55,560 nt of DNA from an uncultured Thermodesulfobacteriota bacterium (GTDB lineage Bacteria > Desulfobacterota > DSWW01 > CAZFWM01): NCBI GenBank assembly GCA_964522545.1, contig CAZFWM010000002.1, positions 22,289 through 77,848 of the forward strand, given 5' to 3'. Position numbers and translations under genes: made by a program. Shown piece after piece: positions 5,820-46,260 of the stretch. Position 1 is the first letter of the stretch. Every line of letters begins with the position of its first letter. The notes beneath the pieces are model-generated. The model searched no databases and was not told the origin of the DNA. It was given only the letters and a program-made list of their open reading frames with translations.

Positions 5820-7304
5820 TCATGGGCGGATCACCTCATACCGAGTTGCCCTGCCGGCACCGGTCATCTTTAGCAATCCCAGTTTGGTCAGCTTCCGGAT
5901 ATGGTTCTTGGCTGTCCGATTGGGAAGCTTCATTGCCTTCTCGTATTCGGCGGTCGCCACCGAGTTGCGCTTCGAAATCCACTTCCAGCCGACGAGCTCG
6001 GATTTGTTGAGCTGTTCCCGGATTTCGCTGGGCAACGTGGAGACTGCCGATTCTCGGCTCCGGTAGATCGTAAGCACGAGGTAGTCGCCGGCCAGGGCGA
6101 AAGTCGGCAGGGGAAGGTTAAGCCTCTGCGCCTGGCCCTTCAGGCTCTTCTCCAAGCCGAATCCCTGCTCCTCGGCCATCCCCATGCGGGCGAACGTGTA
6201 ATGCAGAACAGGATTCCGGCTCTTCATCGGCGCCGTAAACGACTGGAGTTCTTCAAGAGTGACCGGTGGAATTGGCCCACCGGGACTCTTGACTGTAATA
6301 GTATCCGCGTTCACCACGAGCTGGCATTTCTGCCCGGCGAGGTCATAGTCGCGATGGATCAGTGCATTGACCACGGCCTCGCGGATCATGTCGAACGGCA
6401 AATCCACTTCCTCCTTCCGTTCCATGCGGCGCCGGTCGATGGTGCTTGGAAGCACAGTGTTCAGCCACTTTTCCAGGAGGTCTGGAATGAGCACCAGGGC
6501 CTGACCGAATTCCTTCCGCGACGACGATCCATCCGGCAAATCCGCCCGCGCCAGCAGCCCGGCCTGCGGCATGGCGTTGCGCGCCTGCTTGCCGAACAGG
6601 AGCAACCCAAAGCCGCTGGGCGTCGCCGCGTCGCCGTCGCCCACGAGCACTCCCTGCTGTCGGAGCATTCGCAAGAACTCATGCGAGCCCACCTCTGGAA
6701 TCAGTTTTGCTTTCGAACGATAGCGTTTCAGCGCTTGCCGGGAGAGATCCTCCAGAGCCACCGCCGTCATTGGGTCTTCGTACATCGAGAGCTTGATCGG
6801 CTCCTCTTTTGGCCTCGCCGGTTGCAGCCGCGTCCATGCGAAAAACTCCTGATTCTCTGCCAGAATCTCGTCCTGAAGGTCGCGGTCGAACATGTGGACT
6901 GTCACACCGTGGCGGCGGAGGTGCTCGATGCCCTTCCCCGCCACGCGCGGGTTGTCGTCCTCGAGACCCACATAGACCTCCTTGATGCGAGCGCTGACGA
7001 TGTGTCGCGCGCAGCCACGTTTGGGCTCGTTGCGGTCGAGACAGGGCTCGAGAGTTGTAAAGAGTGCGCAACCATCCAGCCGTTCTCCAGGGCACTTACG
7101 CTCAAGCAGAATGAACTCGGCATGATCGCCATCGCGCAGTTCCCCCCGCGCCGCCGTCACAACCGAACCGTCCGGCCGCACCAGCACGGCACCCACCGAC
7201 GGACTCGGCGACCCGTCAGGCCGGTGTTCAGGCACCGACTGGCGCATAACCTCAATCGCCTTCTTCATCATCGAGCGCGAATCGATCTTCCCTTTCGCTG
7301 GCAT
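5820..7304 (-). CDS. RibD-like Zn-dependent deaminase fused to HATPase_c_4 (RecG C-terminal-like) and winged HTH
   Basis: PSVGAVLV, DHAEF and TLEPCLDRNEPKRGC (deaminase); REAVVNALIHRDY, SPGG, RNPVL and EEQGFG (HATPase_c_4); RTAKNHIRKLTKLGLLKMTGAGRATRY (wHTH). No RibD reductase domain. Confidence 0.85.
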   Translation of the reverse strand: MPAKGKIDSRSMMKKAIEVMRQSVPEHRPDGSPSPSVGAVLVRPDGSVVTAARGELRDGDHAEFILLERKCPGERLDGCALFTTLEPCLDRNEPKRGCARHIVSARIKEVYVGLEDDNPRVAGKGIEHLRRHGVTVHMFDRDLQDEILAENQEFFAWTRLQPARPKEEPIKLSMYEDPMTAVALEDLSRQALKRYRSKAKLIPEVGSHEFLRMLRQQGVLVGDGDAATPSGFGLLLFGKQARNAMPQAGLLARADLPDGSSSRKEFGQALVLIPDLLEKWLNTVLPSTIDRRRMERKEEVDLPFDMIREAVVNALIHRDYDLAGQKCQLVVNADTITVKSPGGPIPPVTLEELQSFTAPMKSRNPVLHYTFARMGMAEEQGFGLEKSLKGQAQRLNLPLPTFALAGDYLVLTIYRSRESAVSTLPSEIREQLNKSELVGWKWISKRNSVATAEYEKAMKLPNRTAKNHIRKLTKLGLLKMTGAGRATRYEVIRP

Positions 7305-7452
7305 GATCAGGTCTCCCCGGCGATTACCGTACTCCGATCGTCATCATCATTACCATCATCATTGTCGTCACCGCTACTATGGTCGTTGCTATCACCGTCA
7401 CCTAGCCCTCCCCCGCCGCGTAATCGCACCATTCTTTGCAGCATCACTTCCA

Positions 7453-7508
7453 GCCCAACGACTCGCGTCACCGGCGCGCGAATAGCGCGTACAGTGCACG
7501 CGTTATGC
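7453..7508 (-). other. attC site with shortened R''-L'' spacer
   Basis: Minus strand GCATAAC-G-CGTGCACT...GGTGACG-CGAGTC-GTTGGGC; L''/L' pair with an extrahelical G; spacer is 1 nt instead of the usual 5. Confidence 0.75.
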
Positions 7509-7548
7509 GATACTTATGCATGTCCAATCGCTAACTGTTTACTTCCGA

Positions 7549-10500
7549 CTACTTCAGCGGGCCGATCTTATCTGCCTCGATCGGCAATGCTGTCAAGTAC
7601 ATCATTGGTACGTGCGTGTTGGTTACAAGCCTATCATCAATGCGGGCCGGATCCGGCACGAATCTGACAATACGTTGGAGACCCGTGGGGTTGGCCCTTA
7701 TCCAGTTAATTCGCCGGACATGCTTATCTAACTCATCCTTCGCCTCTCCTCGGAAGCGGCGGCAGATTTCGGCGACCTCGGCAACTGTCCGGGCAAGTTG
7801 CAAGCGCTTGCACTCGATGAGCTGAATTTCTCCACTAGTCTTCCACGCCAAGACATCGATATCACCGAGCTCGGCGGAACCACCCAGTTCAGTCATCTTT
7901 ACTTCATTACGCGCCTCCCATCCTTTCTCGCGCAGTTGATTAGCAACTGACCGAGCAAAGGCATAACCCCTCTCGCTGTTTACCGTTCCGATGTATTGTC
8001 TAATCTTCTGCGAAGTGAAGAACTCTTGTGGTAAATGCCCTTGTTCAGACCTCTCCAGCAGGTACCTGACTCCAAGCCTGAGTGCACCGGCCCCATAGAA
8101 TACCTTGTCATCGTCTTCCTTACCGAAGACAAGAATAGGTCTGGCTGTTGCGGAGAGCCTACGACGGAATCGCCAGGGATAAAGGTCTCTATTCCTGAAC
8201 CCCGGTGGCGGCCTCTCCCAGGCAGTACGATGGAAAATGCTAAAAGTTCGAATAAACGCTTCGCTGACATCAAGCGACAGGCTACGGGCTGTAGTCAGCA
8301 TCGTTTTGAGATCGCCTAGCGTTGTCTGCACAACAACGCTGTCGCATTCAACCGCTAAATCCAATAGCTCCGCCAACCCTTCAATCGCCTCGTCCGGCGT
8401 TAAACCAAACTCATTCTGAAATGCCCGAATGAAATCGGCAGAGAATGACTCGTCAGCTCGCGCTCGTTCACTGGGACGCTTGCTTTGATACAATTTGCTA
8501 TAGTCTCCTGCCGCAGCTTCGAATTTTTCGCGGAAGTAGCCAGTTAAGAACGGCTTGATGACGGTATCATAGAAACCACGCTTGATGGTGTACTCGCCAT
8601 TCGGATGTAGGTCGATTCGGGGTTCAATCAGATCGCTGTTGACCGCGTCAGAGTCCATTGCAACCTCGACTAGCAGTGCTGCTTTGGCCAGCAGTTCATC
8701 CAGTCCCCACCGAGAAAGCTGGCGGCCACCTGCCTCTGGACACTCACAGATGGCCATTTCTAGGATTGTGCGAGTGGGTAAAGAAACATTGTCCCGATCG
8801 GATTCCCGCTGCTGCGCGACCGTGAGGACGTCCTCCTCCGGCGCATACAAGGCAAGCACTGCCTGTGCGGTTCTGCGCCAGTGGTCACGGTCTTGGATAA
8901 CGGCTTCATGTACACCAAGGGCCTCACGGATCACCGACGCCCTATCGAGTTGCTGCAACAGTTCCCGGAGCTGGTTCCAGACCTTGTCTACAACCTTGTG
9001 CAGGAATTCATTGCACTCGGACTTTGACGCGCTACTGGTACCAAGCCGCGCTGCCGTACAACCTTCGGACAGCCTGAGCTTGGAGAAGACAAAATCCTCA
9101 TGAGCCAGAAAGATCGGCTTCTGACCTTGCCGCGCCAGCAAGTGCTCAATGGGGTAATACGTACGAAAGCGATGAATAACACGCATACCCGAGACACCGA
9201 TCACCCTGCTCATTAGGTCATCGAGGGCGATCTCGTCAACATCCCCCGTCACACCTTGATGCAGGCTAACAAGGCCTTTCGCAATGCCGTGCAGAACCAA
9301 CCTCTCACCTGTATTCTGAGGCTGCTGGAAATGCATGAGGAAATCAGATGGAAACTTGACCTCAGCGGTTCGCTGGTCGAGGTTGACAGCAACTTCTGGC
9401 TCGCCGATCGGAACGTCCGGCTGGGGTTCTACGTAGTCCACAGATACAACGACTTCGCCAAAGTTGAGGCGAATCTCTATTGCGCCGGCTGGCGCCTTTG
9501 GGTAAAGAGCTTCGACCTCGAACACTAGCCTGTCGTACAAGCCAATGAACCCAGACCACATCTCGTAGAGGAGGCGCCGGCTCTGCTCGTCACCCTCCCG
9601 TGGCTCTACCAGGAGCCAGCTTGGGCCGCGAGGTGTCTCCACCGCGCCTGCCAGCACGCCCGCCCGCAAATGACCCAGGCTTGCGTATATCGGGCGACCT
9701 TGCATGGACTTGAAGTACGCGTCCCTGCCGAACCGCATGACAGGTGAATATGAACCGGCTGTTGTCTGAAGGACATGGCGGTCCACCAGGTTTCTCACCT
9801 CCTCCCGGACAGGCAGGACCATGTCGTTACCAATGGAAAGCATAGAGCCTTGATCAACGGGCAGGTCACGCGGCACTAGCTGGTAGTGCAGGCGACGCCA
9901 GAAGCAATAGAAGTTGTAGTCACCATTAATATTCTGGAAGTAGACGCCCTCCCCCGTTGCCCATTCCTTCTGCTTGATGCATTTGAGGTAGCGTGTGATT
10001 GGTCGGTGGAACTCACCAGCTAACATGAGGAGGTCCGATATTCGAATAACCGACAAGCGCCACTGATCCGGCCAATCCTTGAAGCCCAGAGCAAACCCGC
10101 GGCCGAGGCCGCCCATCACCAGCAGCGTCATTCCTTCGGCGAAGTCTGGTAACGACCGACAGTGACTGGATGCTTTGCTCAGATATTCCTCGAGTCCTGC
10201 CCTTAGTTCCTCCGGGTACTCCATAAAACTGGAAAGGCCCTGGGCATCCAGCCAATCCATCCTGTCATGCAGTAGGACAACATGGAGATACTTGTTGATA
10301 TCGTACTTGAGCAACCAAGCGTGCAGTGAAGGCACTTTTCCGTCCGGTACTGGCGGCTCAAGAGAGTCGGTCTCCCCTTTCAACTCCCAGAGCCCTTCTC
10401 TCTCAACTTGGCGCGCCTGGCGGTTGGCGAGCGCGTCTGCGAACGTCTGAAGGTAGCCCATCCGCCCTAATTCAAATAGAACAAAGCGCCTGATTGCAGG

Positions 10501-11232
10501 ACTGACTGCGTGAGGCAAAGCAAGGACCAGTTCACCACCGAAGTCGACGAGAGGGCGTCTCTCCAGGGACGAGTGTCCGGTCGACTCCTCCGCGAGTGCT
10601 TGCTTGTCTTCATCCCGCAGGATAAACGGCTCCAATACCTGACGATTGATACCCAGCGCATCAAGTTCGCTGACTGTGAAGGTTATCGCGCGGGCCCGGT
10701 CTGCCACCTGGGTTGCCGGTGCCAATCTAATCGTACTTTTTGGGGTCGAAGACTCGATGTGCCATCTCCGCAGGTCGACCCGTTCGGCAACGCAGTCGCT
10801 TAGTTTCAGCAATGCAAATGCGGGAACCAACTGATCCCGCCATTTCTGTGGAGCCCTGCGGCTGCCCAGGGTTTCGAGGACTACCTGAACGAAGTAATCA
10901 TTTGATTCCCAGATACCTTCGAATACCCGCCGATTTCCTTCGGGAGTCTCTACATTGGTGACGTGGACGTCTTCGACAGGATCCTCGAGCAATGCAATCT
11001 GGGTTTTGCCGAGCTGCCTGTTCAGCCAGTGACCAATTTCAGTTAAGCCAGGCTTACGACGTCCGTGGCAGTGTGCCACGGCCAGGTGAACGAGGGTCTC
11101 TATACGGATTGTATTGGCCTGTAGGGCAGACGCTGTCAGTAGGCCTCCGAGTTGCGATACAGTAGACTTTAGATGGTACTTTCCAAGGAATCCTGCAATG
11201 CGTTTCAGCTCAAGAGCATTGAGTGGAACCAT
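7549..11232 (-). CDS. 1227-aa protein with C-terminal PD-(D/E)xK (NERD-like) nuclease domain
   Basis: Long uninterrupted ORF; C-terminal GDIDVLAW...IQLIECKRL motif; the N-terminal ~1080 aa are not recognisable by eye. Confidence 0.8.
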   Translation of the reverse strand: MVPLNALELKRIAGFLGKYHLKSTVSQLGGLLTASALQANTIRIETLVHLAVAHCHGRRKPGLTEIGHWLNRQLGKTQIALLEDPVEDVHVTNVETPEGNRRVFEGIWESNDYFVQVVLETLGSRRAPQKWRDQLVPAFALLKLSDCVAERVDLRRWHIESSTPKSTIRLAPATQVADRARAITFTVSELDALGINRQVLEPFILRDEDKQALAEESTGHSSLERRPLVDFGGELVLALPHAVSPAIRRFVLFELGRMGYLQTFADALANRQARQVEREGLWELKGETDSLEPPVPDGKVPSLHAWLLKYDINKYLHVVLLHDRMDWLDAQGLSSFMEYPEELRAGLEEYLSKASSHCRSLPDFAEGMTLLVMGGLGRGFALGFKDWPDQWRLSVIRISDLLMLAGEFHRPITRYLKCIKQKEWATGEGVYFQNINGDYNFYCFWRRLHYQLVPRDLPVDQGSMLSIGNDMVLPVREEVRNLVDRHVLQTTAGSYSPVMRFGRDAYFKSMQGRPIYASLGHLRAGVLAGAVETPRGPSWLLVEPREGDEQSRRLLYEMWSGFIGLYDRLVFEVEALYPKAPAGAIEIRLNFGEVVVSVDYVEPQPDVPIGEPEVAVNLDQRTAEVKFPSDFLMHFQQPQNTGERLVLHGIAKGLVSLHQGVTGDVDEIALDDLMSRVIGVSGMRVIHRFRTYYPIEHLLARQGQKPIFLAHEDFVFSKLRLSEGCTAARLGTSSASKSECNEFLHKVVDKVWNQLRELLQQLDRASVIREALGVHEAVIQDRDHWRRTAQAVLALYAPEEDVLTVAQQRESDRDNVSLPTRTILEMAICECPEAGGRQLSRWGLDELLAKAALLVEVAMDSDAVNSDLIEPRIDLHPNGEYTIKRGFYDTVIKPFLTGYFREKFEAAAGDYSKLYQSKRPSERARADESFSADFIRAFQNEFGLTPDEAIEGLAELLDLAVECDSVVVQTTLGDLKTMLTTARSLSLDVSEAFIRTFSIFHRTAWERPPPGFRNRDLYPWRFRRRLSATARPILVFGKEDDDKVFYGAGALRLGVRYLLERSEQGHLPQEFFTSQKIRQYIGTVNSERGYAFARSVANQLREKGWEARNEVKMTELGGSAELGDIDVLAWKTSGEIQLIECKRLQLARTVAEVAEICRRFRGEAKDELDKHVRRINWIRANPTGLQRIVRFVPDPARIDDRLVTNTHVPMMYLTALPIEADKIGPLK

Positions 11233-11331
11233 CCCCGCACCTAACGATGTCTTATGGTGACCTGGAGAGCGCTTGGGCGACCTCCTCTGACCAAAAGGAG
11301 GTATTCAAGTAATCGCCGCGTTACTCGAACC

Positions 11332-11394
11332 GCATAACGTCCTGGGCGATCAGCAGCGACGCGAAGCGTCGTCGACTGCATCGCCGGGTTGGGC
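11332..11394 (-). other. attC site
   Basis: Minus strand GCCCAAC-CCGGC-GATGCAGT-(gacgc ttc gcgtc stem)-GCTGATC-gcccaggac-GTTATGC. Confidence 0.85.
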
Positions 11395-12174
11395 AGCACG
11401 CCCGTCAGTCTCAAGAGACGGTACCGATCGAGGGTTGTCAGATCCGTACCGGTAACACAAGTGCTGCATAGTAAAGCCCTCAAGTTCCGCGAACTGATAA
11501 GGATTTGTATGAATACCCCCCGGGATCTCAAGCCACTTCCGAACTGTCTGGATGAATACTGACAGGCTCTTCGCCTTTGGGCTACCGCTCTCTTCGATTG
11601 GATAGTGGCCGTACGGACGACGCCCCTTCTCCGGCAGGAATTCGAACGCTCCTTGGGCCAGGGAGACAACTAGAAGTGGATACTCGAGCTGTTCATCACG
11701 AAGGCCCACGTCGCGATACCAACGGCCGAGGAGCCCTGGCGTCAGCTTTGGCGAGTCGAACGCAAATAAAAACGTTGCAACGTAACTGTTGCGCGCCGTA
11801 GCTGCCTTCTTGAACGATTGCAGGTTCGTCAGCCCTTCCCTGAACGCTCGCTTGTCAAGAATGGTCTTGACCTCAATGACGCGCTTCAGCGCCTCTGGCT
11901 GGACGACGACCAGGTCTCCCAACCGAAAGAGGTAAGGCGCTGGATAGTGTTCATCGACAAAGAGTATGTCGCCTTGCTTCGACACGAACCCATCGGGGCA
12001 GTATGCGAATCCCGTACGAAGTGAGTGCCTCCCGGACAGCATCGGGCGGAGAGACTCCCTCAGTATCTGCTCATGATGCTCGCCAATTGACGGGTTGTGA
12101 TGTGTGAACTCGCGCAACCTCTCAAGCTGGGAGAGCATCTCCCTCGCCATTCCCTCGTAGAGCTTTGCGTTCAC
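11350..12174 (-). CDS. DUF6602 / NucC-like restriction-endonuclease-fold protein
   Basis: HNPSIGEHHEQILRESL...TGF...SKQGDILFVD...VIEVKT pattern; stop lies inside the attC. Start taken as GTG 12174 (AGGTGA RBS); the track gives GTG 12213. Confidence 0.75.
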   Translation of the reverse strand: MNAKLYEGMAREMLSQLERLREFTHHNPSIGEHHEQILRESLRPMLSGRHSLRTGFAYCPDGFVSKQGDILFVDEHYPAPYLFRLGDLVVVQPEALKRVIEVKTILDKRAFREGLTNLQSFKKAATARNSYVATFLFAFDSPKLTPGLLGRWYRDVGLRDEQLEYPLLVVSLAQGAFEFLPEKGRRPYGHYPIEESGSPKAKSLSVFIQTVRKWLEIPGGIHTNPYQFAELEGFTMQHLCYRYGSDNPRSVPSLETDGRAAQPGDAVDDASRRC

Positions 12175-12577
12175 GCTTTCACCTGTCTGCCCTAGTCCAT
12201 ATCGAGTTTCCACGTATGAGCCTTTTATCTTCCTTCCAGCTATATATAGCTCCAGAGCCGTTTAGTCAACTAATCAAAATTACAATATATTCCAGAGAAT
12301 TGAACCCACACTTCGGGGTTATAGGTAGTTTCTACTTAACTCCAATGGGTGATATAAATCAAATTTTATCCACCGGGCTGCGTACACCTTTGCCTCCCCT
12401 GTTTAGCACGTGAATGAAAATTATCATTCTCTGCGCCTCTGCGCGAGGTCCAGATCTTTCGTTCAATCTCTCTCATTTCGACCGCTTCCTACTGAGATTT
12501 CAACCGGAAGGAGAAATCGTACATGAATCAGAATCAGACGACCGCCGGCGGCGAGCCGGTGGTCGTCTGATTCTGAT

Positions 12578-12594
12578 TGGGCAATTTCTGCCCA
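12578..12594. promoter_or_regulatory. Candidate sigma54-activator binding site (copy 1)
   Basis: Palindrome TGGGCA-atttc-TGCCCA starting 147 bp upstream of the -24 GG. Confidence 0.5.
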
Positions 12595-12722
12595 GGATCC
12601 GGCAAAGGGCCGAACGGATATTTCCCTTACAGTTAAAACCGGCCCGGGAGGTGACTTTTAAAATAGTCTTGAATTACAGTTGGTTGCATCTGTTTTGCCC
12701 ACCCTTCTGACTCCCTGCAAGC

Positions 12723-12739
12723 TTGGCATACTGATTGCT
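12723..12739 (+). promoter_or_regulatory. Sigma54 promoter (duplicated flgF promoter)
   Basis: TTGGCATACTGATTGCT, GG-N10-GC. Confidence 0.8.
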
Positions 12740-12821
12740 CAGGACTCTCTGTGGATTTCAGATTAAAGATGACCTAAAGACCGGGGGTCTCCCCCCTCTC
12801 CTCTTCCGGAGGGATAGCTGA

Positions 12822-14018
12822 ATGGACAACGGAATCTATGCCGCACTCACCGGATACCTGGCCCAAGCAAGGCGCCTCGACCTGATGTCGAACAACCTTG
12901 CGAACGCCAATACGGCCGGCTTCAAAGATGAAAAATTATTTTTTAATGGTATTGTGATGTTGGGTATTGATAAATTAAGAACTCAAGATCAGAATCCGAA
13001 TAAATCTAAATGTCTAGAAAAAGGATTTGATATATTTAATAAATCAATCCAAGACACGCCACATTATAAGTTGGTGAAGGAATTTTGTGAAAGTCCTGAT
13101 TTTAATATTGAAGATAGTGAATATTGCAAGCTTGTTGATTTTGTATTATCTATAAGTAAGAAGCCATATATACATAATGAGCGTGAAATAATAGAATCTG
13201 GGTTAAAAAGAGCAAAAGATTATCTTGACTTATATAAGCGGATGAAGTTAGACAAGAAAGTTGAGCCGATAAAAGTAAAAGCACTGTTTAATGGAGATTA
13301 CATAATTACAGATGGTTTGCATAGGGTTGCTATAGCATTGGTTATGGGGCATGAGACTGTACCTGTAGAGATAATTGAAGTTGATGATCAGATAAATGCA
13401 ATGCTAGAAAGGCTTATGACAGAATATCCTGTTGGAAGAAGATTATATATCCCAATAGAGCATCCAATATTTAGCAATTGGAAACTTCTGAGAGATGATA
13501 CAAGATGGAAATTGATGTCTAGTGCATTTGATTGGAAGGGTAAAAAAGTATTGGATATTGGTTGTTATACAGGATATTTTTCGCATAAAATTGCAAAAAA
13601 AGGGGGAATTGTTATCGGAGTAGAGACAGATGTAACTAAATTAAGGGTAGCTAAAGAAGAAAATAGTCTGTTAAAATTAGATGTAGAGTTTATTCTTGGA
13701 AGTTTTGATACGTATATCAAAGGAAAACAATTTGACTGTGTCATATTCTTCAGTGTATTGCACTGGATACTTAAGGATAAAGGGATTGAAGGAGTTAAAG
13801 AATCTTTAACATTAATATCAGTTTCCTCACCAGTCATGTTTTTTGATATGGGCCAAAATAATGAGGAAAAGATGAGAACTGAAGAATGGAACCATGGAAT
13901 GACAATTGACAAAGATACAATACCTGGATTAATTATAGGAAATTCAGGCTATACAGATTTCAAACATTTAGGCACAAGCGACTCAGGAAGAGATGTTTTT
14001 AAATTTTGGAGAAGATGA
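12822..14018 (+). CDS. Chimera: FlgF N-terminus (35 aa) + ParB/Srx-like domain + class I SAM methyltransferase
   Basis: MDNGIY...[13 protein letters not shown], then an abrupt switch to AT-rich DNA; PIKV...YIITDGLHR (ParB/Srx) and KVLDIGCYTGYFS (SAM motif I). Confidence 0.8.
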   Translation: MDNGIYAALTGYLAQARRLDLMSNNLANANTAGFKDEKLFFNGIVMLGIDKLRTQDQNPNKSKCLEKGFDIFNKSIQDTPHYKLVKEFCESPDFNIEDSEYCKLVDFVLSISKKPYIHNEREIIESGLKRAKDYLDLYKRMKLDKKVEPIKVKALFNGDYIITDGLHRVAIALVMGHETVPVEIIEVDDQINAMLERLMTEYPVGRRLYIPIEHPIFSNWKLLRDDTRWKLMSSAFDWKGKKVLDIGCYTGYFSHKIAKKGGIVIGVETDVTKLRVAKEENSLLKLDVEFILGSFDTYIKGKQFDCVIFFSVLHWILKDKGIEGVKESLTLISVSSPVMFFDMGQNNEEKMRTEEWNHGMTIDKDTIPGLIIGNSGYTDFKHLGTSDSGRDVFKFWRR

Positions 14019-14501
14019 ATAAATAGGTGGTTAGTAAATGGGTCATGTAATTGATGAAAGATTAAACAAGCACGTCAGGCCTACAGCCGATTTGTTCAAA
14101 CCGTCCTTGACCGAACAGAACCCCTGGCCAAAGCCTTATAGATAGGGTACTCTTGATCCAGGACACTCAAATTGCCAAAATAGCGGACAGAATTTCTGAG
14201 ACGCGATACTAGACTGCTCATGAGCCAAAATTCTCCAATGGCTGAATCCAAAACAATCCACCGGAATTTCTTGGACGTTTTGTTCCTGCTCTCCATCTCG
14301 GGCATATAGTACTTAATACGGCGGAGCAGCAACCGGACAATTTTCCCTCATTCTCTGAGCCTCTGCTCGAGGTCCAGATCTTCCGTTCAATCTCTCTCAT
14401 TTCGACCGCTTCCTACTGAGATTTCAACCGGAAGGAGAAATCGTACATGAATCAGAATCAGACGACCGCCGGCGGCGAGCCGGTGGTCGTCTGATTCTGA
14501 T

Positions 14502-14518
14502 TGGGCAATTTCTGCCCA
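14502..14518. promoter_or_regulatory. Candidate sigma54-activator binding site (copy 2)
   Basis: TGGGCAATTTCTGCCCA, identical to copy 1. Confidence 0.5.
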
Positions 14519-14646
14519 GGATCCGGCAAAGGGCCGAACGGATATTTCCCTTACAGTTAAAACCGGCCCGGGAGGTGACTTTTAAAATAGTCTTGAATTC
14601 CAGCAAGTTACATCTGTTTTGCCCGCCTCTCTAACTCCCTGCAAGC

Positions 14647-14663
14647 TTGGCATACCGATTGCT
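14647..14663 (+). promoter_or_regulatory. Sigma54 promoter of the flgF operon
   Basis: TTGGCATACCGATTGCT, GG-N10-GC. Confidence 0.85.
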
Positions 14664-14745
14664 CAGGACTCTCTGTGGATTTCAGATAAAAAATGACCTA
14701 AAGACCGGGGGGCTCCCCCCTCTCCTCTTCCGGAGGGATAGCTGA

Positions 14746-15528
14746 ATGGACAACGGAATCTATGCTGCACTCACCGGATGCCTGGCCCAGGTAAGGCGCC
14801 TCGACCTGATGTCGAACAACCTTGCAAACGCCAACACGGCCGGCTTTAAAGTAGACACGCCGGTGTTCGAGCAGTTCAATACACCGAAACCGGCCACGGT
14901 TCAAGGTCCCTTCGTGGCCGAATCCATGAATGAGGCCTATGTCATGGGAGCAACGCCACGCCAGAACCAGTACGCCGCCTGCGCGGGGACGATCACCGAT
15001 CACTCCCCCGGCCCTTTGAATGAGACCGGAGGGAGCCTCGATATGGCAATCAAGGGGAAGGGATTTTTCGCGATCGAGACCCCGGGGGGGGAGCGTTACA
15101 CACGCAATGGATGCTTCAGCCGCAGCTCGGAAGGGGATCTCGTCACGGCCGAGGGCCACGCCGTCCTGAACACCAACGGGGAGCGCATCAACCTGTCTGA
15201 ATCCGGAGAGGTGATTGTTCAGAAAGACGGGCTGATCCTTCAGGACGACAATCCTGTCGGCTCCCTCCGGATCGTGGACTTCCCCGACAAGTTGGTCTTG
15301 GAGAAAGAGGGGGACAATTGCTTCAAATACAACGGGAATACCCCCCCCGCCGGTCCCGATGAGATCCACGTGCTCCAGGGCTGCTATGAGCGCTCCAATG
15401 TCAACGTGGTTAAAGGGATCGTGACCATGATCGAGGTGACCCGCCAGTTCGGGGCATACCAGAAGGTCATCTCCTTTCTGAAGAACGCCGAGTCCCGCTG
15501 TATCAATGAAGTAGGAAAGCTCGCATGA
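14746..15528 (+). CDS. flgF: Flagellar basal-body rod protein FlgF
   Basis: [32 protein letters not shown] and ERSNVN; precedes flgG. Confidence 0.93.
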
Positions 15529-19608: not shown

Positions 19609-20394
19609 ATGGCCGACGCAATAAGCCCCATACAGCTTCCATGGCAGCAGATCTCCTCAGAGGGGAAGCTGAACACCCTCGAGGGGCGGCTTGCCGGCCG
19701 GAGCGGTCCGGATGCAGGCCGAGAAAAGATCATCGACGCGGCCCGCGAGTTCGAATCTTTCGTCATCGAGTACATGTTCAAGGCCATGGAGGAAACGGTA
19801 GAGCGTAACGACATGTTCGGGGGGGGGCACGCCGAAGCGATCAGTCGGTCCATGCTCTATGAGGAGTACGCAAAGAGCGCCGCCCAGGCCGGGGGCCTCG
19901 GCCTTGCCGACGCCATAAAAGATCAGCTCATCCCTGCGGACAATGTGCCCGGCCTGAGCACGGCCGACTTCAGGAGCCCGATGGAGGGGGTCATGAGCTC
20001 GGACTTCGGGTACCGCGCGGATCCGTTCAGCGGCAAGAGGTCTTTTCACAGCGGAATCGACATCGCCAGACCCGACGGTACGGCGATACGCTCCGCAGCA
20101 GCGGGCAAGGTCACCTTCAGCGGCGTCCGCGGAGACCTGGGCAATATTGTGGAGATCGATCACGGTCAGGGATACACCACTTGCTATGCCCACAACTCCG
20201 AGAATCGGGTCCGGCCGGGGGAGACCGTGCGACAGGGCCAGGTCATCGCCCTGGTGGGAATGACAGGGCGTGCAACCGGACCCCACCTCCACTTCGAGAT
20301 CAGGCGCGATGGCGTGGCAATCGACCCGGAAATTTTTCTCGGCTCAGGTGAAAATAATGCTAAAGTTATTCATTCAGCTGCCGATAACAGATGA
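19609..20394 (+). CDS. flgJ: FlgJ-like rod-binding protein with M23 peptidase domain
   Basis: AAREFESFVIEYMFKAM (rod-binding), then HSGID, YAH and GPHLHFE (M23). Confidence 0.8.
   Translation: MADAISPIQLPWQQISSEGKLNTLEGRLAGRSGPDAGREKIIDAAREFESFVIEYMFKAMEETVERNDMFGGGHAEAISRSMLYEEYAKSAAQAGGLGLADAIKDQLIPADNVPGLSTADFRSPMEGVMSSDFGYRADPFSGKRSFHSGIDIARPDGTAIRSAAAGKVTFSGVRGDLGNIVEIDHGQGYTTCYAHNSENRVRPGETVRQGQVIALVGMTGRATGPHLHFEIRRDGVAIDPEIFLGSGENNAKVIHSAADNR
20361..20387 (+). promoter_or_regulatory. Sigma28 promoter for flgMN
   Basis: Perfect TAAA-N15-GCCGATAA. Confidence 0.9.
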
Positions 20395-25164: not shown

Positions 25165-26241
25165 ATGCGTATTGGAGCCAACAGTTTTGTTTCGCCCCAA
25201 GCTATCGTAGAACAACCCGATCACATTTTTATTGGCAGCAATGTTCAAATCAAAGAGGGCGTTGTGCTGCGCCCGGAAAATGGATGGATATCCATTGGGA
25301 ACAACGTGGTCATAAACCACTATACCGCTATCCATGCAAAAGGGGGCGTGGAGATTGGAGATTGGAGCATCCTTGCTCCGAATTGCGGCATTTACGCGCA
25401 AAATCATTCTTTCAGCTCCTTCGACATGCCGATAACGAAGCAGCCCAATACAGGCGTCGGGATTACCTTGATGGGAGACAACTTGTTGGGCGGTGGCGCC
25501 ATCATTCTGGATGGAGTGACCCTGGGCAAAGGTACGGTAGTAGGGGCGGGATCTGTAGTCACCAAATCATTTTCAATGGCCAAAATCATTGCGGGAAATC
25601 CCGCCAGGATACTAAAAGACCGGGCCCCGACGGATGTCTGGGAATTTAAAAAAGCCGAGCGGTGTTCTTTGTATTTAACGCCTGAAAAATACTGGCCCTT
25701 CATAAACAAGCGAGCAGAGATTGCTCTGAAATATATAGAGCCGGAAGACACTGTCTTGGACATCGGCTGTGGTGAAGGCTACATCACAAATCAGGCCAAG
25801 GATCACTGCAAGAAGATCGTTGGAATCGATTACTCAGATGACGCACTGAAGACGGCCAGAGAAAGATATGATCTTGAATGCTATCACATGAGTAGTACGA
25901 ATCTGGTCTTTGAACAGGGGTCATTCGACAAGGTACTCTGTTTTGAACTGATTGAGCACCTTACACGAATTCAAGCGATTAAAATGTTGGCAGAGGTCCA
26001 AAAGGTCCTAAAACCCGGAGGGATTATAATCGGGTCAACTCCAATAAGGCAGACACCGTTCTCGGCACCCGCTACCTATTCTCACATCCATGAATACTCT
26101 GAACCTGAACTGCGAAAGCTGTTTGAGAATTTCTTGGAGCTAGGAATGTCCGGAGGTTTCTTTATTGCCAGAAATGGCGTGAAGGCCAGCATGAAAGGGG
26201 TCCCACGGTATGAGACCAGAGGATCGATTCTATCTTATTAA
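25165..26241 (+). CDS. Hexapeptide (LbH) acyltransferase fused to class I SAM methyltransferase
   Basis: IGSNVQI, IGNNVVI, VVGAGSVVTK and AGNPAR, then VLDIGCGEG and FELIEHL; lower GC than the flagellar genes. Confidence 0.85.
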   Translation: MRIGANSFVSPQAIVEQPDHIFIGSNVQIKEGVVLRPENGWISIGNNVVINHYTAIHAKGGVEIGDWSILAPNCGIYAQNHSFSSFDMPITKQPNTGVGITLMGDNLLGGGAIILDGVTLGKGTVVGAGSVVTKSFSMAKIIAGNPARILKDRAPTDVWEFKKAERCSLYLTPEKYWPFINKRAEIALKYIEPEDTVLDIGCGEGYITNQAKDHCKKIVGIDYSDDALKTARERYDLECYHMSSTNLVFEQGSFDKVLCFELIEHLTRIQAIKMLAEVQKVLKPGGIIIGSTPIRQTPFSAPATYSHIHEYSEPELRKLFENFLELGMSGGFFIARNGVKASMKGVPRYETRGSILSY

Positions 26242-26376
26242 ACAGCTCAAGAAGTACTCCGTGCAGGGACCTGTTTTGGACAGCTGCGCCGGGCCTTCAA
26301 AGCTTTGGCATAAAATTTCGACTGGTATTTACGTCGCATCTAAAAAAATCTAAATAAAGTAACAGCGAAGGTTATT

Positions 26377-29300
26377 ATGGCTGAAAGAGCGCATCCCGAA
26401 GATCCAGGCTTTAGTGAGGGAAGTCCATATAGAACACAATTATTGCAACGTTATCATTTTGCTAGACAGTCTTTGAAAGGTGAAATAATTGTTGATATTC
26501 CATGCGGTGTTGGATGGGGATCCAGTTTATTGAAAGCCGAGAAGGTTATAGGAATAGATATTTCTCAAGAAGGTATCCAATATGCAAAAACTCATTATCC
26601 TAATTGCTTTTTTCTAGTAGGCGATATGGAAAAAATTCCATTGCCATCTGGAAAGATTGACACTGTTGTATGTCTGGAAGGATTAGAGCACGTTCCTAAA
26701 AATGTTGGTCTATCTTTTTTAGGGGAAGTAGAAAGAACTCTTAAAAAGAGCGGAACATTGATCTTAACAGTTCCAGTTATCTTACCAGGCGGCAAACATT
26801 CTGGAAATTCATACCATTGTTACGAATACCCCCTCCGTGAACTTAAAGAAATTCTTTGTAAATTTTTCAAATTAAGCTTATTTGAGCTTCGAAGGGGACC
26901 GGATTGTCCTATAGTCTATGTTGTTGCTACAAAGATTCCCTTAGCATTCAATAAAACAATAGTTCCCCAATATAACGACAGGGTCGATATAATCCAAGAT
27001 CCGGAGGAACGAAAAAGCTTGCCGCACTCGGGTACATATAACCAGGCACAAATGAGGGAAGAAGGAAAAAGGAAAATGAATCAGCCCAAAACGGTAGTCC
27101 TCACAACGTCGGCCGCGCCGGAGATCTCCCCCTTCTCCACGATCGAGAAGCTCCCTCCCTTGGGCATGGGATCGCTCATGTCTATACTCAGGGGGGCCGG
27201 ACATAAAATAGCCTTTGTAGACAATTTCCTCCGGCCGACTGGATTTCCAGGATCGCTCCGCCTGGCTGACCACTCGGTCGATTTTGTGGGCATCCACGCC
27301 AATACAATCTGTCTGCGCGACACGCTCCGCATGATCGAAGCCCTAGAGACGCAACGAAAGGAGGGGTGGAAGGGTAAGATCCTGGTAGGCGGCCCCCATG
27401 CCAAGGTCGCCTTGGAGACTCTGCCAGAGGGAGTCGACCACATCGTGGTCGGCGAGGGGGAGGAGGTAATCCTCGATATCGTCGAAGGTCGGATCGAAGA
27501 CCGGATCATACGGACTCCCCGAATTAAGGATCTTGACGACATCCCCATCCGCCCATGGGACCTATTTGCAAAACTGCCGTACCCCTTCTCAGTACCTTGG
27601 TTTCCCGAAAAGCCGGTCTTCCCGATGAACACCTCCAGGGGGTGCCCCTTTCAGTGCTTCTTCTGCTCGGTCGGAACGCTCTGGGACCACAAATATACAT
27701 ATATGAGTGCTGAACGCATCGTCGAAGAAATAAGCCACTTGGTCTCCAGCTACGGTGTGCGCGGCATCTACTTCCGCGAGGACAACTTCACCGTGCGACG
27801 GGATCGGGTCGAGGCCTTCTGCGAGCTCGTGAAGAGAAAAGGCCTTGACATCAAGTGGGTTTGCGAGACCCGGGTGAGCGCCCTGGACCGCGAGCTCATT
27901 CAAACCATGTATGAGGCCGGGTGCCGGGCCTACTACCTCGGTGTGGAAAGCGGGAGCCAGCGCGTGCTGGACTTCCTCCAGAAAAAGCTCACCGTCGGCC
28001 AGATCCGGGAGGTCTTTGCCGGGTGTCGTGAGATCGGGATGCGCACGGCGGCCAGTTTAGTAGTGGGCGTGCCGACCGAGACACCAGACGAGCTCTCTGA
28101 AACCATCCGCCTCAGTAAAGAGATACGACCCGACACCTGCTGGTGGAATATCTTCGTAGGTCTCCCGACGAGCGGACTCTATCACTACGTCCTGGAGAAC
28201 AACCTCCACGAGCACATCGACGACCGGGGTCTCGTCTATCTCAAGGGCCACAACGAGCGGGTCGACCGCTTCTACAACGGCCTCCCGTCGGCCAAGATCC
28301 CGGCCCCCTCCCTTAATGCGGCAAAGCCGCAAGCTATCAGCTATCAGCCTTCAGCTGTCAGCTCCCCCAATCCTCGCCCCACAGAGAATTCTCGAAAGAT
28401 CTCCGGAAAGGATCCCAAAGTGAGCGTGGTCATGAGCGTGCACAACGGGGAAAAATATCTGGCCGGAGCGACCCACAGCATCCTGGCGCAGACCTTCGCC
28501 GACTTCGAATTCATCATCATCGACGACGGCTCCACCGACGGGAGCCGGGCCATTGTACAGAGCCTCGAGGCCCCCCGCATCCGCCTCATCGCCCAGGAGA
28601 ACCGGGGGCTTGCGGCGGCCCTGAACCGGGGGATCGGGCTCGCCCGGGGGGCCTACATCGCCCGCATGGACGCCGACGACATCTCGGCGCCCACCCGGCT
28701 GGCCGAGCAGGTCGACTTCCTGGACGCCCACACCGAGATCGGCATGGTCGGATCGAGCTTCCACCAGATCGACGAGGCGGGCAGGATCACGGCCCTCACC
28801 CCTGTGCTCACATCCAACGAGGAGATCCAGGCACACCTCCTCGAGCAAAACTGGTTCTGCCACGGCTCGATGATGGTGAGGCGCGAGTGCATCGAGGAGA
28901 CGGGCGGCTATGACGAGACCTTCACGAGCGCCCAGGACTATGACCTGTGGCTGCGCATCTCGGAGTCCTATCAGGTGGCCAATCTCTCAAAGCCCCTCTA
29001 CCAGTGGCGCCTGAGCCCGGAGGGGATCACGGTGAAGCGCAAGGCCGAGCAGGACCGCTGCGCCCGGCTCGCCCGGGAGCGGGCGGTCGAGCGGCGGGGA
29101 TCGGGCAAGAGCCTGCCGGCCCAGGCGGCTCCGGCGGATCCGGCGGATCCGGACCCTCCTCCGGCCATGACGCAGCCTTCCGGTCCGGACGTCTCCGCTG
29201 CGCGGCTCGTGGCCGAGGCGCAATCGGCCCGGAGCCCTAAGGTGAGTGTCATCGTGCCCACCCACAACCGGCCGGACATGCTCACCGAGACGCTGCGGAG

Positions 29301-33628: not shown

Positions 33629-34702
33629 ATGGCCGATCCTCACGATAAATTGAAGGGGCAGTTCCTCTCGCTCTTCCATCACGACGGCCGGGGCGTGGCC
33701 GAAGACAGGGCCTTCGTTCTCGACACCTTTCTCGAGTTCGACTCTCACATTACCGTGGGAGAGCTCCTTCAGCGGGTCGAGGAAAAGGGGATGTCCCTCG
33801 GCGAACCGTTCATCCGGGAGAGCCTCGATCTCTTCCTACGCTATGGAATCGCACATGCCACCCACTTCGAGGGCCAGGAGACCCGCTACGAGCATCTCCA
33901 CCTGGACGAGCACCACGACCACTTCGTCTGCGTGCGCTGCGGCAAGATCATCGAGTTCCGCGATCCCAGGATCGAGGCGCTCCAACTCGACATGGCCGGG
34001 GCCCACGGATTCTACAGCCTCCGCCACCGCATGGAGGTCTACGGCCTCTGCCCCCGATGCCGGGGCAGGGAGGAGGAGGCGATCCCCCTCTCTTCTGTCC
34101 CGAATGGCGGCCGCTGCCGAGTCATGCGCTTCGAGTGCGGGCCCGATGAGGAGCGCCAGCTCGTGGAGCTGGGTCTCCCCGTAGGGACCGTCGTGGAGGT
34201 GATCCAGAACGCCCCGCCCGGCCCGCAGGTAGTGGCCGTGCGGGGAATGCGCGTCGGGATCGACTGCCGCCTGGTATCCACGATCATGGTATCGATGGTC
34301 GAGGACTCACTCCGGTACGAGACAGGCGATCGGAACGAGGCCCCGGAGGGCGCCGGGGTGAGGGAGCCGCCGAGACCGGGGCCGTCCGATTTGCCCGGAC
34401 CACCCCGCCGCCGCCGCTGGGGGTGGGGCCGCCGGAAGGGGTACGGCCGGAAAGCGAAGGGAGAGCAGCCCGGCTTCGGCCGCCGCCTGAGCGAGTACCG
34501 GGAGGGCGAGACCGGCCGAGTAAAAAAGCTCATGGGCAGGGGCCGTTTCCGCCACCGCCTGATCGAGATGGGATTCACCGAAGGGACCGAGGTCCACGTC
34601 GAGAAATACGCCCCGCTCCGTGACCCGATCGAGCTCGTGATCAAGGGCTACCACGTCAGTCTCCGCCGCGATGAGGCAGACGAGATCATCATGGAGATCT
34701 AG
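33629..34702 (+). CDS. Fur-like domain fused to two FeoA domains
   Basis: HHDHFVCVRCG...CPRC; FeoA1 (RQLVELGLPVG); Arg/Gly/Pro-rich linker; FeoA2 (RLIEMGFTEG...APLRDPI...SLRRDEA). Confidence 0.88.
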   Translation: MADPHDKLKGQFLSLFHHDGRGVAEDRAFVLDTFLEFDSHITVGELLQRVEEKGMSLGEPFIRESLDLFLRYGIAHATHFEGQETRYEHLHLDEHHDHFVCVRCGKIIEFRDPRIEALQLDMAGAHGFYSLRHRMEVYGLCPRCRGREEEAIPLSSVPNGGRCRVMRFECGPDEERQLVELGLPVGTVVEVIQNAPPGPQVVAVRGMRVGIDCRLVSTIMVSMVEDSLRYETGDRNEAPEGAGVREPPRPGPSDLPGPPRRRRWGWGRRKGYGRKAKGEQPGFGRRLSEYREGETGRVKKLMGRGRFRHRLIEMGFTEGTEVHVEKYAPLRDPIELVIKGYHVSLRRDEADEIIMEI

Positions 34703-42699: not shown

Positions 42700-42716
42700 A
42701 TGGCATGGCCGTTGCA
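42700..42716 (+). promoter_or_regulatory. Sigma54 promoter of the glycosylation operon
   Basis: ATGGCATGGCCGTTGCA, GG-N10-GC. Confidence 0.75.
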
Positions 42717-42980
42717 AATCCAACGGTTCATCCTGGTGGTATATCCGCCAATGCCAGCGGCGGAACGCTCGGCCTCCGTCCGACTTGCCTCCCGTCCATC
42801 GACGGGAACGGACGTAAGGTCGGTCCGCCGTACCCCCTCACCCCTTATCGCTTCCAGGGGAGGGGGGGAAAGGGAAGAGGTGAGAGGGATGTGCTATGCC
42901 CTTCAGTCTTCATCTGGGAGCCGGGGAGAGTCGTTGTTCTCTCCCCGGCTCTCCCCCTTTCCCTGTCCAGTGAAAAACTG

Positions 42981-44633: not shown

Positions 44634-44639
44634 AGAACA

Positions 44640-46124
44640 ATGATGCAGACTGAAACGCTATACGAACTCAACCTCCGGTCTCTGGCTGCCCGCTTTCCCG
44701 GGGTCGCCGCCAGGCTTGCCCGAATCCGCCGGCGGCATGTGAGCTCACAAAGGGACGGACCGGGCACAAATGAGATCGAGATCCTAGCTGCCTCGAAGGG
44801 GGGGGCCAAAACGGCCAGGTGCAGATCTAGCGGCGTTCTGGTGCACAGCCGGGTCGATCCTCTCGCCGAAGCCCGGCGCATTGCCCGGCAAGTCCTGGAC
44901 ACAGGCGCCCGGCGCTTTCTCATCTTCGGCTTCGGCCTCGGCCATCACGTCCGGGCGATCCTTACCGCCTCTGGCGGGGATGTAGAGGCGGTGACCGTCT
45001 TCGAGTTCAGTCCTTCCTTGCTTGTGGCCGCGATGCGCGCCTCGGACCTCACGGGTCTCATGGAGGACCCCCGAGTGAGCCTCCACCTTCCTCGCTCCAC
45101 CCTGGAGTTCGCGAAGGCGATCATGGAGCTCGAGCACGTGTACTACCGGCACTTCTACCATCGGCCCTCCCTACGCATTGCATCCGGATCGATGAAGGAA
45201 GCGGTGGACATCGTGGAGGGCCTCTCTGTAGAGCAGATCAATACGGATCGGCGCCTGCGCGAGATGGAAGAGAACAGGGAGCGCAACCGGACCGCCGTGG
45301 CGTCCGCCCCCGGCGTCGAGACCCTCTTCGGACGGGGACGGGGAAGAGGGGCCGTGATCGTTGCCGCCGGCCCATCCCTGGACACTACGATGCCCCACCT
45401 CCACAGCCTTAACGGAAACGCGGCCGTCATCGCCGTGAACGCCGTCTTTCGCAAGCTCACGACCTCGGGCATACGGCCGGACGCTGTGGTCTGCATTGAA
45501 TCGCGGCCCGAAATCATGGGTGACTTCGAGGGGCTCTGGGAGAGCGACGTGCCTCTCATCTTTCTACCGACAACTCAGTACCGCGTCGTGGCCAGGTATG
45601 GAGGGCCTAAGATCGTTGCCTATCCGGAGGGGGACCTGGCCACGAACGCCTTTGCCCGGGAATTCCCGAAGGGGAGACTGGCGAGCGGCCTGGGCTCGGC
45701 CGCCGGAAGCGCAATCGACCTGGCCATAAGGATGGACGCCAACCCGATCCTATTCACTGGGCTCGACCTTGCCTTCACCGGCCGGCGCCCGTACTGCGAC
45801 GACGTCGAGACCGGCGAAAGCTTACGGGCCACCGGAGGTCCTTTCGCGAGAAACGTTCCGGCCGTCGGGGGGGGGCGGGTGCCGACCAGCCCCGCCTTTT
45901 ACCACGCCCTGCAGGCAATCAAGCGTCTCATCCTCGAGGAGAAACAACGCTGTATAGACCGGCTCTTCATCGACGCCACCGGAGGGGGGGCCCGGATCGA
46001 CGGAACCCGGATCATACCGCTCGAAGAGATAGCGACTTTTCTCGGCAGTGAAACAGCGAAACCGCAGGCAAACATAACACCCAAGAGCACAAAGGATGAA
46101 CAAATTTTTTCTTTGCATATGTGA
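44640..46124 (+). CDS. Motility-associated factor (Maf/DUF115) putative flagellin glycosyltransferase
   Basis: NLRSL, HSRVDP, FGFGLG, AVIVAAGPSLD, GLDLAF and IDATGGGARIDG. Confidence 0.88.
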   Translation: MMQTETLYELNLRSLAARFPGVAARLARIRRRHVSSQRDGPGTNEIEILAASKGGAKTARCRSSGVLVHSRVDPLAEARRIARQVLDTGARRFLIFGFGLGHHVRAILTASGGDVEAVTVFEFSPSLLVAAMRASDLTGLMEDPRVSLHLPRSTLEFAKAIMELEHVYYRHFYHRPSLRIASGSMKEAVDIVEGLSVEQINTDRRLREMEENRERNRTAVASAPGVETLFGRGRGRGAVIVAAGPSLDTTMPHLHSLNGNAAVIAVNAVFRKLTTSGIRPDAVVCIESRPEIMGDFEGLWESDVPLIFLPTTQYRVVARYGGPKIVAYPEGDLATNAFAREFPKGRLASGLGSAAGSAIDLAIRMDANPILFTGLDLAFTGRRPYCDDVETGESLRATGGPFARNVPAVGGGRVPTSPAFYHALQAIKRLILEEKQRCIDRLFIDATGGGARIDGTRIIPLEEIATFLGSETAKPQANITPKSTKDEQIFSLHM

Positions 46125-46128
46125 GATT

Positions 46129-46187: not shown

Positions 46188-46260
46188 CCCACTTTCACTT
46201 TTTGACTGGTTAGTACTGCTAATCCGACTTAGCTGAACCTCGTATGTGCGGGGAAAGGAA

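Follow-up and report, generated by a model that had tools for sequence, protein, structure and literature searches.

Locus structure and assembly support

The window, that is, the whole 55,560-nt stretch of DNA analysed here, comes from a 77.9-kb contig of a Desulfobacterota-like marine metagenome-assembled genome (MAG; 669 contigs, 8.05 Mb, 95% complete, 5.2% contaminated) and contains an intact flgF at the head of the flagellar genes flgF-G-A-H-I-J, which are followed by flgN-K-L. Upstream of flgF lies a chimeric open reading frame (ORF) of 398 aa, the subject of this analysis, in which residues 1-35 of FlgF are fused in frame to a methyltransferase. The two genes share a gapless direct repeat of 504 bp (R1, 12424-12927, at the chimera; R2, 14348-14851, at flgF) with 95.4% identity (23 mismatches) and a spacing of 1924 bp, as described in an initial annotation made from the sequence, and the 8.05-Mb genome yielded no third copy. 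The in-frame passage into an AT-rich ORF described there was also recovered: the frame is open from 12822 to 14018, and its foreign part has a G+C content (GC) of 0.318 and a third-position value (GC3) of 0.24, against 0.581 and 0.751 for flgF and a genome GC of 0.591. From left to right, the locus consists of native upstream DNA (U), R1, the enzyme part, native intergenic DNA (H), R2 and the remainder of flgF.

The intact flgF product passes the NCBIfam FlgF equivalog model TIGR02490 with 190.1 bits (cut-off 178.5), and the chimera fails it with 39.5 bits. In Pfam, the chimera matches Flg_bb_rod (PF00460) over residues 5-35 (E 8.8e-8) and class I methyltransferase models over residues 239-327 (best E 3.1e-11). 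It has neither a D1 domain nor the C-terminal Flg_bbr_C helix in the Pfam scan and therefore cannot be a rod subunit. Its residues 1-35 are a 94%-identical copy of the host FlgF N-terminus, and the 35 common codons differ at the seven places counted in the initial annotation, five of them synonymous (codons 7, 15, 27, 30 and 34) and two non-synonymous (Y12 and A16 in the chimera, C12 and V16 in FlgF).

The repeated DNA includes a set of expression signals. The exact sigma-54 motif TGGCAY-N5-TTGCW is found at 12724-12739 and 14648-14663, about 82 nt ahead of each ATG, and R1 keeps the -24 and -12 elements with one change in the spacer. The genome encodes rpoN and contains 41 such exact motifs in 8.05 Mb, four of which are on the flagellar contig, where they precede a motA-like gene, R1, R2 and a GT9/Maf-like glycosyltransferase cluster (42701). 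Both copies also have a Shine-Dalgarno (SD) sequence, GGAGGG, 8 nt upstream of the ATG. The internal ATG at 12957, already judged to lack a clear ribosome site, has no purine-rich sequence ahead of it, so translation should start at 12822. No intrinsic terminator was found after the enzyme gene, and transcripts may therefore run on into flgF. About 150-200 nt upstream of the sigma-54 motif, both repeat copies contain a palindrome (12526-12578 and 14450-14502) with a perfect 24-bp stem (-56.5 kcal/mol, z -9.9) and no T-run after it; it was considered as a shared enhancer and rejected, having no copy elsewhere in the genome.

The mismatches between R1 and R2 are unevenly distributed, with three in 12424-12459, none in the 216 bp of 12460-12675, ten in 12676-12732, three in 12733-12821 and seven in the coding part, which corresponds to a divergence of 4.6% overall and 8% outside the identical core. 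At the mean mismatch rate, the chance of a clean 216-bp core (in which the palindrome lies) is 4e-5; it follows that gene conversion or the assembler has homogenised the core. The two copies share another identical stretch of 31 bp at 12733-12763.

Identical tracts of this kind raise the question of an assembly artefact, in which the chromosome would have a single U-R-flgF arrangement, with the enzyme, H and one repeat copy existing as a 1.9-kb circle or tandem array. The core and the 31-bp stretch are unresolvable by short k-mers, and the MAG was assembled at low depth. The read support consists of Logan contigs from four runs (X1-X4) of one marine study at depth 3-5; these runs are probably the source of the MAG and therefore give no independent support. 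One of these contigs (X3 record 19, 14551-14800) is a hybrid, with letters of R2 type at 14600-14656 and of R1 type at 14688-14766 and the switch in the 31-bp stretch common to both copies, which is exactly one Logan k-mer. Another contig of R1 type (X1 record 2) has two extra differences inside the identical core (12598 and 12614). Strain variation, recombination between R1 and R2 or artefacts of low depth may lie behind both cases.

Against an artefact, all five junctions are bridged by at least one per-run Logan contig with at least 31 nt on either side. These include both junctions of the chimera, which the initial annotation had left to spanning reads: U to R1 (X1 record 1 and X4 record 24) and R1 to the enzyme (X2 record 11, 12764-14004, 0 mismatches), the latter in unique sequence. 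The others are enzyme to H (X1 record 3 and X4 record 26), H to R2 (X1 record 7 and X4 record 27) and R2 to flgF (X1 record 8 and X3 record 20). X4 record 24 runs from U across the whole identical core into R1-specific sites with 0 mismatches. The same fusion is present in a second assembly, an ENA contig of 8,898 bp, with 397/398 identical residues and the single change I216K. In addition, the 9-12-nt flanking words described below are not made by assemblers, the 1.9-kb circle would have no replication gene, and the fused ORF exists even under the alternative topology. An artefact is therefore considered highly improbable.

The 3.5-kb DNA of the locus matched none of 40 other genomes. Within the same class, FlgF is only 35-37% identical; a JGI metagenome scan returned four loci at 32-34% identity, and two relatives with FlgF at least 90% identical, P0040 and P0041, exist.

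Breakpoint words and the proposed promoter capture

R1 is flanked by a direct repeat of 10/11 nt, ATGAAAATTA on the left and ATGAAAAATTA (12928-12938) on the right, at an edit distance of 1. The anchored-flank null for this repeat gave 26 of 224,400 real-sequence pairs and 18 of 200,000 shuffles. With R1 deleted in silico, translation in the frame of the enzyme gives stop-H-V-N-E-K-L-F-F-N-G, where N-E-K-L resembles NDKL of the family member P0045. This identifies the left word as enzyme coding sequence and places R1 inside the 5' end of the enzyme gene. The exact word GATGAAARATTA has only two occurrences in the window, one at the fusion junction and the other at 14053-14064. The second belongs to a short stretch with the sequence AGGTGG 7 nt upstream of ATG 14038, reading M-G-H-V-I-D-E-R-L, which looks like the ribosome site, ATG and first nine codons of the enzyme itself, stranded 20 nt past its own stop codon. 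Short-form relatives begin at positions comparable to this stranded start, and contigs of runs X1 and X4 cover the stretch (14025-14064) with 0 mismatches.

The AT-rich DNA as a whole is bounded by a different direct repeat, matching at 8 of 9 nt (AGCACGTGA on the left, AGCACGTCA on the right). Exact matches to AGCACGTSA number two in the 55.5-kb window, and both are these boundary words (word B and its copy B'). A paralogue of U on contig C75 continues through AGCACGTG and then diverges; word B is therefore host sequence, duplicated at the far end of the insert. R1 lacks the left part of one dispersed repeat that R2 keeps, which indicates that H-R2-flgF is the native arrangement. The initial annotation had offered an insertion into the 5' end of flgF as an alternative origin, and this did not hold, since flgF and its upstream region are intact and native and it is R1 that sits in the 5' end of the foreign gene.

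Neither terminal inverted repeats nor a transposase were seen in or around R1 and the AT-rich insert, no integron-type core sites were found by eye, the window contains no tRNA, and positions 12000-15000 have no Rfam match at E <= 1. A tblastn search for remnants of the enzyme N-terminus in U (12100-12440) with 32 family N-termini returned only noise (best E ~0.01 in a tiny database). A single tandem duplication with a 1924-bp period was rejected, as only 504 bp are doubled and the DNA left of R1 is not H.

On balance, the reading favoured here is a real chimeric gene that arose by promoter capture, in which a decapitated transferred gene was re-headed by a local copy of the promoter and 5' end of its downstream neighbour. 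The foreign gene would have arrived permuted or decapitated and silent. In the simplest account, which has two steps, a circular or concatemeric copy of the enzyme gene may first have integrated between U and H, with a break in codons 6-9 that left its start behind the gene. A copy of the downstream 504 bp would then have been put into the severed 5' end, by local duplication or templated insertion, and the enzyme gene would thereby have gained, in frame, the sigma-54 promoter, ribosome site and start codon of flgF. The three copies of word A (A1-A3 in Table 1) and the permuted gene need either such a circular or tandem intermediate followed by a second event, or one multi-step template-switching event during replication, which would also fit. 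The product, FlgF(1-35)-methyltransferase, would be co-expressed with the rod genes and translated from 12822. The capture of flagellar transcription proposed in the initial annotation is supported by structure, with the foreign gene in frame behind a full copy of the flgF promoter, 5' untranslated region, ribosome site and start; what changes is the direction of the event.

Table 1. Features of the chimeric locus and of the adjacent upstream genes (positions in the window)
Feature	Position	Strand	Basis
Deaminase + HATPase_c_4 protein	5820-7304	-	weak pAgo-associated PADLOC matches
Upx-like protein, 1227 aa	7549-11232	-	PADLOC E 3e-167; NCBIfam 618 bits (below cut-off 1900)
DUF6602/NucC-like PD-(D/E)xK nuclease	11350-12213	-	
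Word B, AGCACGTGA, end of the native upstream DNA (U); second copy at 14069-14077	12405-12413	+	
Word A1, ATGAAAATTA, left flank of inserted copy R1; methyltransferase coding fragment	12414-12423	+	
R1, derived copy of flgF upstream region + 35 codons; contains two host dispersed repeats, palindrome 12526-12578, sigma-54 motif 12724-12739, SD GGAGGG 12808-12813, ATG 12822	12424-12927	+	repeat comparison
Chimeric ORF, FlgF 1-35 + methyltransferase, 398 aa	12822-14018	+	Pfam, homology
Word A2, GATGAAAAATTA, fusion junction; codons 36-39 (D-E-K-L) = first enzyme-family residues	12927-12938	+	
ParB/Srx-like domain core, ~residues 148-186, with DGLHR	13263-13379	+	SbnI profile match
Class I S-adenosylmethionine (SAM) methyltransferase domain, ~residues 224-357	13491-13892	+	Pfam; WbdD profile matches
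Apparent displaced native methyltransferase 5' end: SD AGGTGG 14025-14030, ATG 14038	14025-14064	+	
Word A3, GATGAAAGATTA, D-E-R-L, in frame within displaced 5' end	14053-14064	+	
Word B', AGCACGTCA, right flank of AT-rich insert	14069-14077	+	
H, native host intergenic DNA, GC 0.477; dispersed repeat 14206-14276	14069-14347	+	
R2, original flgF upstream region + first 35 codons; sigma-54 motif 14648-14663	14348-14851	+	
Intact flgF, first gene of flgF-G-A-H-I-J	14746-15528	+	Pfam, NCBIfam

Enzyme family, FlgF leader and possible maintenance

The enzyme part belongs to a family of which 26 clusters at 90% identity (225-447 aa) match approximately residues 45-398 of the chimera at 43-59% identity, and a HMMER search returned 1781 matches at E <= 0.001. 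Flg_bb_rod was found in 0/26 of the family clusters, and a methyltransferase domain in 0/11 rod-protein matches. Among the best 150 of the 1781 HMMER matches, none has its best stretch in residues 1-35, and all 15 two-stretch matches were scanned, with Flg_bb_rod in none. The comparison with other proteins suggested in the initial annotation, for a combination of Flg_bb_rod with ParB/methyltransferase domains, thus gave no second example among the 26 clusters and 15 two-stretch matches, and the rod-methyltransferase fusion is unique in the collections searched. The named relatives of the enzyme are Omnitrophota, including the two close loci among GTDB species genomes, one of which has a gene GC of 0.345. 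The best named matches of the host FlgI are Desulfosarcinaceae and Deltaproteobacteria MAGs (58-61% identity). The enzyme gene is single copy in the host genome. Together with the low GC, these observations speak for a foreign gene acquired horizontally from a different phylum. As for carriage of the family by phages, IMG/VR gave one distant match (34%, methyltransferase part only).

A profile of the family places four WbdD sequences on top in the PDB (4azw, 4uw0, 4ax8 and 4azs; E 9.4e-9 to 1.3e-8) over profile positions 230-355, and its N-terminal domain matches the ParB-fold serine kinase SbnI (5uje; E 7.9e-4) over positions 153-188. The Pfam model ParB_N is matched by 16/32 aligned family members (best 5.8e-7) and not by the chimera at E <= 0.01; for the chimera itself, the ParB/Srx label of the initial annotation is thus confirmed only in part. 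The Pfam scan found no Pkinase or APH domain in the chimera; in distant relatives, the methyltransferase is joined to an APH kinase (P0054) or to GT1/FkbM modules. The family looks like a WbdD-type glycan terminator, in which the ParB-fold domain may replace the eukaryotic-type kinase. In both Omnitrophota loci (L016:4940-6190 and L017:7830-9077), the homologue is directly behind ABC2_membrane and ABC_tran genes (wzm-wzt), and further neighbours include Poly_export, GNVR/AAA_31, Wzy_C, hexapeptide acyltransferase, methyltransferase and GT2 genes. This wzm-wzt linkage, present in 2/2 close homologue loci, is absent in the window, where the enzyme gene stands alone. From these neighbourhoods, the family would be expected to cap or modify the glycan of an ABC-transporter-dependent pathway, possibly using the ParB-fold domain as its kinase, and the surface or flagellar glycan target suggested in the initial annotation gains support from the family neighbourhood and the likeness to WbdD.

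Atlas neighbours of the homologue P0026 comprise phage-rich clusters as well as one 'O-antigen chain-terminating methyltransferase' cluster (TM 0.51); they are taken as leads only. The PADLOC match of the chimera to 'mad2' (E 7e-15, residues 230-316) was given no weight, as it is confined to the generic methyltransferase core.

Glycosylation genes flank the flagellar cluster of the window, at 25165-32037 and 42701-49982, and the last group is behind a third exact sigma-54 motif, at 42701. They encode a hexapeptide acyltransferase-methyltransferase fusion, two GT9 proteins, a Glyco_trans_1_2/DUF3880 protein, an MptE-like protein, and a protein of 1886 aa with methyltransferase, B12-radical-SAM and three GT2 domains and TPR repeats. 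The MptE-like Pfam family presumably includes the Maf flagellin glycosyltransferases. Since several glycan genes are found downstream of the flagellar genes, a flagellum-linked glycan is a plausible substrate. Under the promoter-capture reading, the enzyme would most likely be cytoplasmic, as WbdD is, and would there phosphorylate and/or methylate a glycan end; this glycan may be the one built by these genes further down the window.

The FlgF peptide would then most likely be a tolerated leader or passenger, since family N-termini vary, with 0 to ~45 extra residues in relatives; the net extension of the chimera is 30 residues. The other possibility is that the leader makes the enzyme a flagellar type III export substrate, or docks it at FlhB/the export gate, so that it would leave the cell at an early stage of flagellar assembly or act at the gate. 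The chimera reads FNGIV at residues 41-45, in agreement with F-x-x-x-hydrophobic, which we take to be the consensus form of the gate recognition motif; the FlgF of the host itself has FEQFN there, which does not agree with this consensus. In the initial annotation, Phe41 was considered as kept from FlgF. The residue is present, but its source is the methyltransferase family: opposite (K)DEKLFFNGIV of the chimera, P0045 has NDKLYFDGEV, and because family homology thus reaches residue 36/37, the junction itself, F40 and F41 are enzyme-family residues. The motif-like word, YFDGEV in P0045, is hence a coincidence. Papers are cited below by PMC number. Rod and hook subunits carry two export signals with a critical spacing between them, and the gate recognition motif is at residues 36-40 in FlgD and 39-43 in FlgE (PMC8983047), a distance at which FNGIV also stands. 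Residues 2-11 of the chimera, including I5, A7, A8 and L9, are identical to FlgF and correspond, as a sequence feature only, to the first signal as defined in PMC8983047. Of the secretion tag proposed in the initial annotation, the extreme N-terminus was copied, but the FlgF part ends at codon 35, before the position of the gate motif.

Non-flagellar proteins and engineered fusions can leave the cell by the flagellar route (PMC2764114, PMC3595227). Against export of this enzyme, its dependence on SAM, and probably on ATP, would leave it with no cofactor supply outside the cytoplasm, judging from established biochemistry; WbdD-type enzymes act at the cytoplasmic face (PMC3482155), and the lack of any other rod-enzyme fusion (0/26 clusters, 0/15 two-stretch matches) also speaks against it. 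Export or docking through the leader is thus regarded as improbable. It is very doubtful, too, that the fusion was selected as a fusion, with the leader taking the ParB-fold kinase/methyltransferase to or through the export gate while the rod is assembled and the enzyme modifying flagellar parts or glycans there. If this were true, the flagellum could be masked as a phage receptor, because the gene edges a defence island (Upx, NucC-like nuclease), and this would be the first natural enzyme hijacking the type III leader of a rod subunit.

The promoter-capture reading also has to be weighed against a neutral by-product, namely a real rearrangement in which the fused ORF is a young, unselected accident, maybe transcribed but with no useful activity, that will decay. 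An in-frame join has a chance of one in three, and the pairwise dN/dS of ~0.12 in the 35 codons (2/80 non-synonymous against 5/25 synonymous sites) is confounded by the constraint on flgF itself. Under neutral evolution of the chimera copy alone, the probability of at most 2 non-synonymous changes among 7 is 0.08; the dN/dS signal is not significant under this fitting null, and the selection on the peptide suggested in the initial annotation is not supported. At position 16, the Ala of the chimera is the derived state, since V, I or M is found in relatives, and position 12 is not polarisable. In simulations with substitutions only, the AT-rich frame of 363 codons stayed open in 61% of cases at 1% divergence, 33% at 2.3%, 11% at 4.6% and 2.5% at 8%; the 33-61% obtained at 1-2.3% would be compatible with neutrality, but the frame is open despite 8% divergence between R1 and R2 outside the core and changes at 5/25 synonymous sites, which is a modest hint of maintenance. 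The family-invariant residues are kept in the chimera, and the enzyme part departs at 6/93 columns identical in at least 16/17 family members, which is within the range of other divergent members. Finally, a promoter, ribosome site and start were supplied together to a start-less gene, as selection for expression yields experimentally (PMC6614815). Neutrality is considered possible, though the less likely explanation.

Several observations weigh against promoter capture of a functional gene, and some of them equally favour the neutral accident. The fusion is known from one lineage only. The enzyme is parted from the wzm-wzt and other usual partners that flank its homologues elsewhere and may have no substrate here. 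GC3 of 0.24 indicates little amelioration and speaks for recent arrival, and the argument from the open frame holds only if R1 and the foreign DNA have the same age and the differences between R1 and R2 arose in situ. The I216K variant of the second assembly affects a conserved hydrophobic position. As for the event itself, no one-step route was found that gives three copies of word A. The source is a MAG of 669 contigs with 5.2% contamination, with reads from one study at depth 3-5, and no RNA runs containing 12200-15000 were listed.

The three minus-strand genes at the top of Table 1 form a defence island (5820-12213) between the fliA region and flgF, and foreign DNA evidently tends to land at this site. 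The genome also contains three families of short (~40-70 nt) dispersed repeats peculiar to it, with ~8, 30 and 45 copies, one of which is a hairpin-type element. In the window they are found at 12421-12521, 14206-14276 (~30 copies) and 14336-14445, and they give spurious short ORFs. Elsewhere in the window, the FlgJ-like protein (19609-20394) has a Rod-binding domain and a Peptidase_M23 domain in place of the muramidase, and an ORF at 33629-34702, directly upstream of feoB, combines a FUR regulator domain with FeoA domains.

Comparison with known systems

The sequence and literature searches returned no natural fusion of a rod-gene N-terminus to an enzyme. With FlgF, FlgG, FlgE and FlgD, the chimera shares Flg_bb_rod as its residues 1-35; unlike them, it has no D1 domain and no rod helix, and the motif position is outside the copied part. 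Non-flagellar proteins exported by the flagellar route (PMC2764114, PMC3595227) similarly have an N-terminal flagellar-type leader on a non-flagellar protein, but these are laboratory constructs or natively secreted proteins that have signals of their own. The chimera offers a natural construct for asking how much of a rod-subunit N-terminus suffices for gate recognition.

For the enzyme part, the closest characterized system is WbdD, a kinase-methyltransferase that caps and terminates the O9a O-antigen of E. coli by phosphorylating and then methylating the chain end (PMC3482155). Like WbdD, the best solved match of the class I methyltransferase (E ~1e-8), the family has a second, fused and putatively nucleotide-binding domain and homologues encoded behind wzm-wzt in both polysaccharide clusters. 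The differences are that the partner domain is ParB/Srx-like where WbdD has a eukaryotic-type kinase, that the two domains come in the opposite order, that a search of the enzyme detected no long coiled coil and that the gene of the window is without wzm-wzt neighbours. Bacterial fusions of the ParB-CTPase fold to SAM methyltransferases, for which ATP binding is reported, have been described together with the ParB-fold kinases SerK and SbnI (PMC12704722); they have the same two-domain architecture as the enzyme family, but unlike it they carry no link to polysaccharides in the available text of that paper ('polysaccharide' occurs 0 times).

The event itself is best compared with promoter capture in the laboratory, where silent transferred genes are switched on within days through duplications capturing a nearby promoter; natural cases with readable breakpoints are few. 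In E. coli, transferred genes were activated by deletions or tandem duplications that captured an upstream or downstream promoter, with microhomologies of 3-12 bp at the breakpoints (PMC6614815); the same paper cites the citrate-transporter case of the long-term E. coli experiment, and a further experimental case is reported in PMC11111574. As in these cases, a copy of a neighbour's promoter is found ahead of a start-less gene, with short direct repeats (9-12 nt here) at the breakpoints. The present case differs in that it comes from a natural, uncultured bacterium and is known from sequence, that the neighbour is downstream, that the captured piece includes 35 codons and gives a protein fusion, and that the activated gene exists in only one full copy, permuted so that its own start comes behind its stop. 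The locus still records three stages, namely the scar of foreign-DNA entry, the severed start of the enzyme and the insertion of the copied promoter and 5' coding sequence of the neighbour. The kind of event is thus known from the laboratory, and what is new is the readable scar of each step together with a natural leader fusion.

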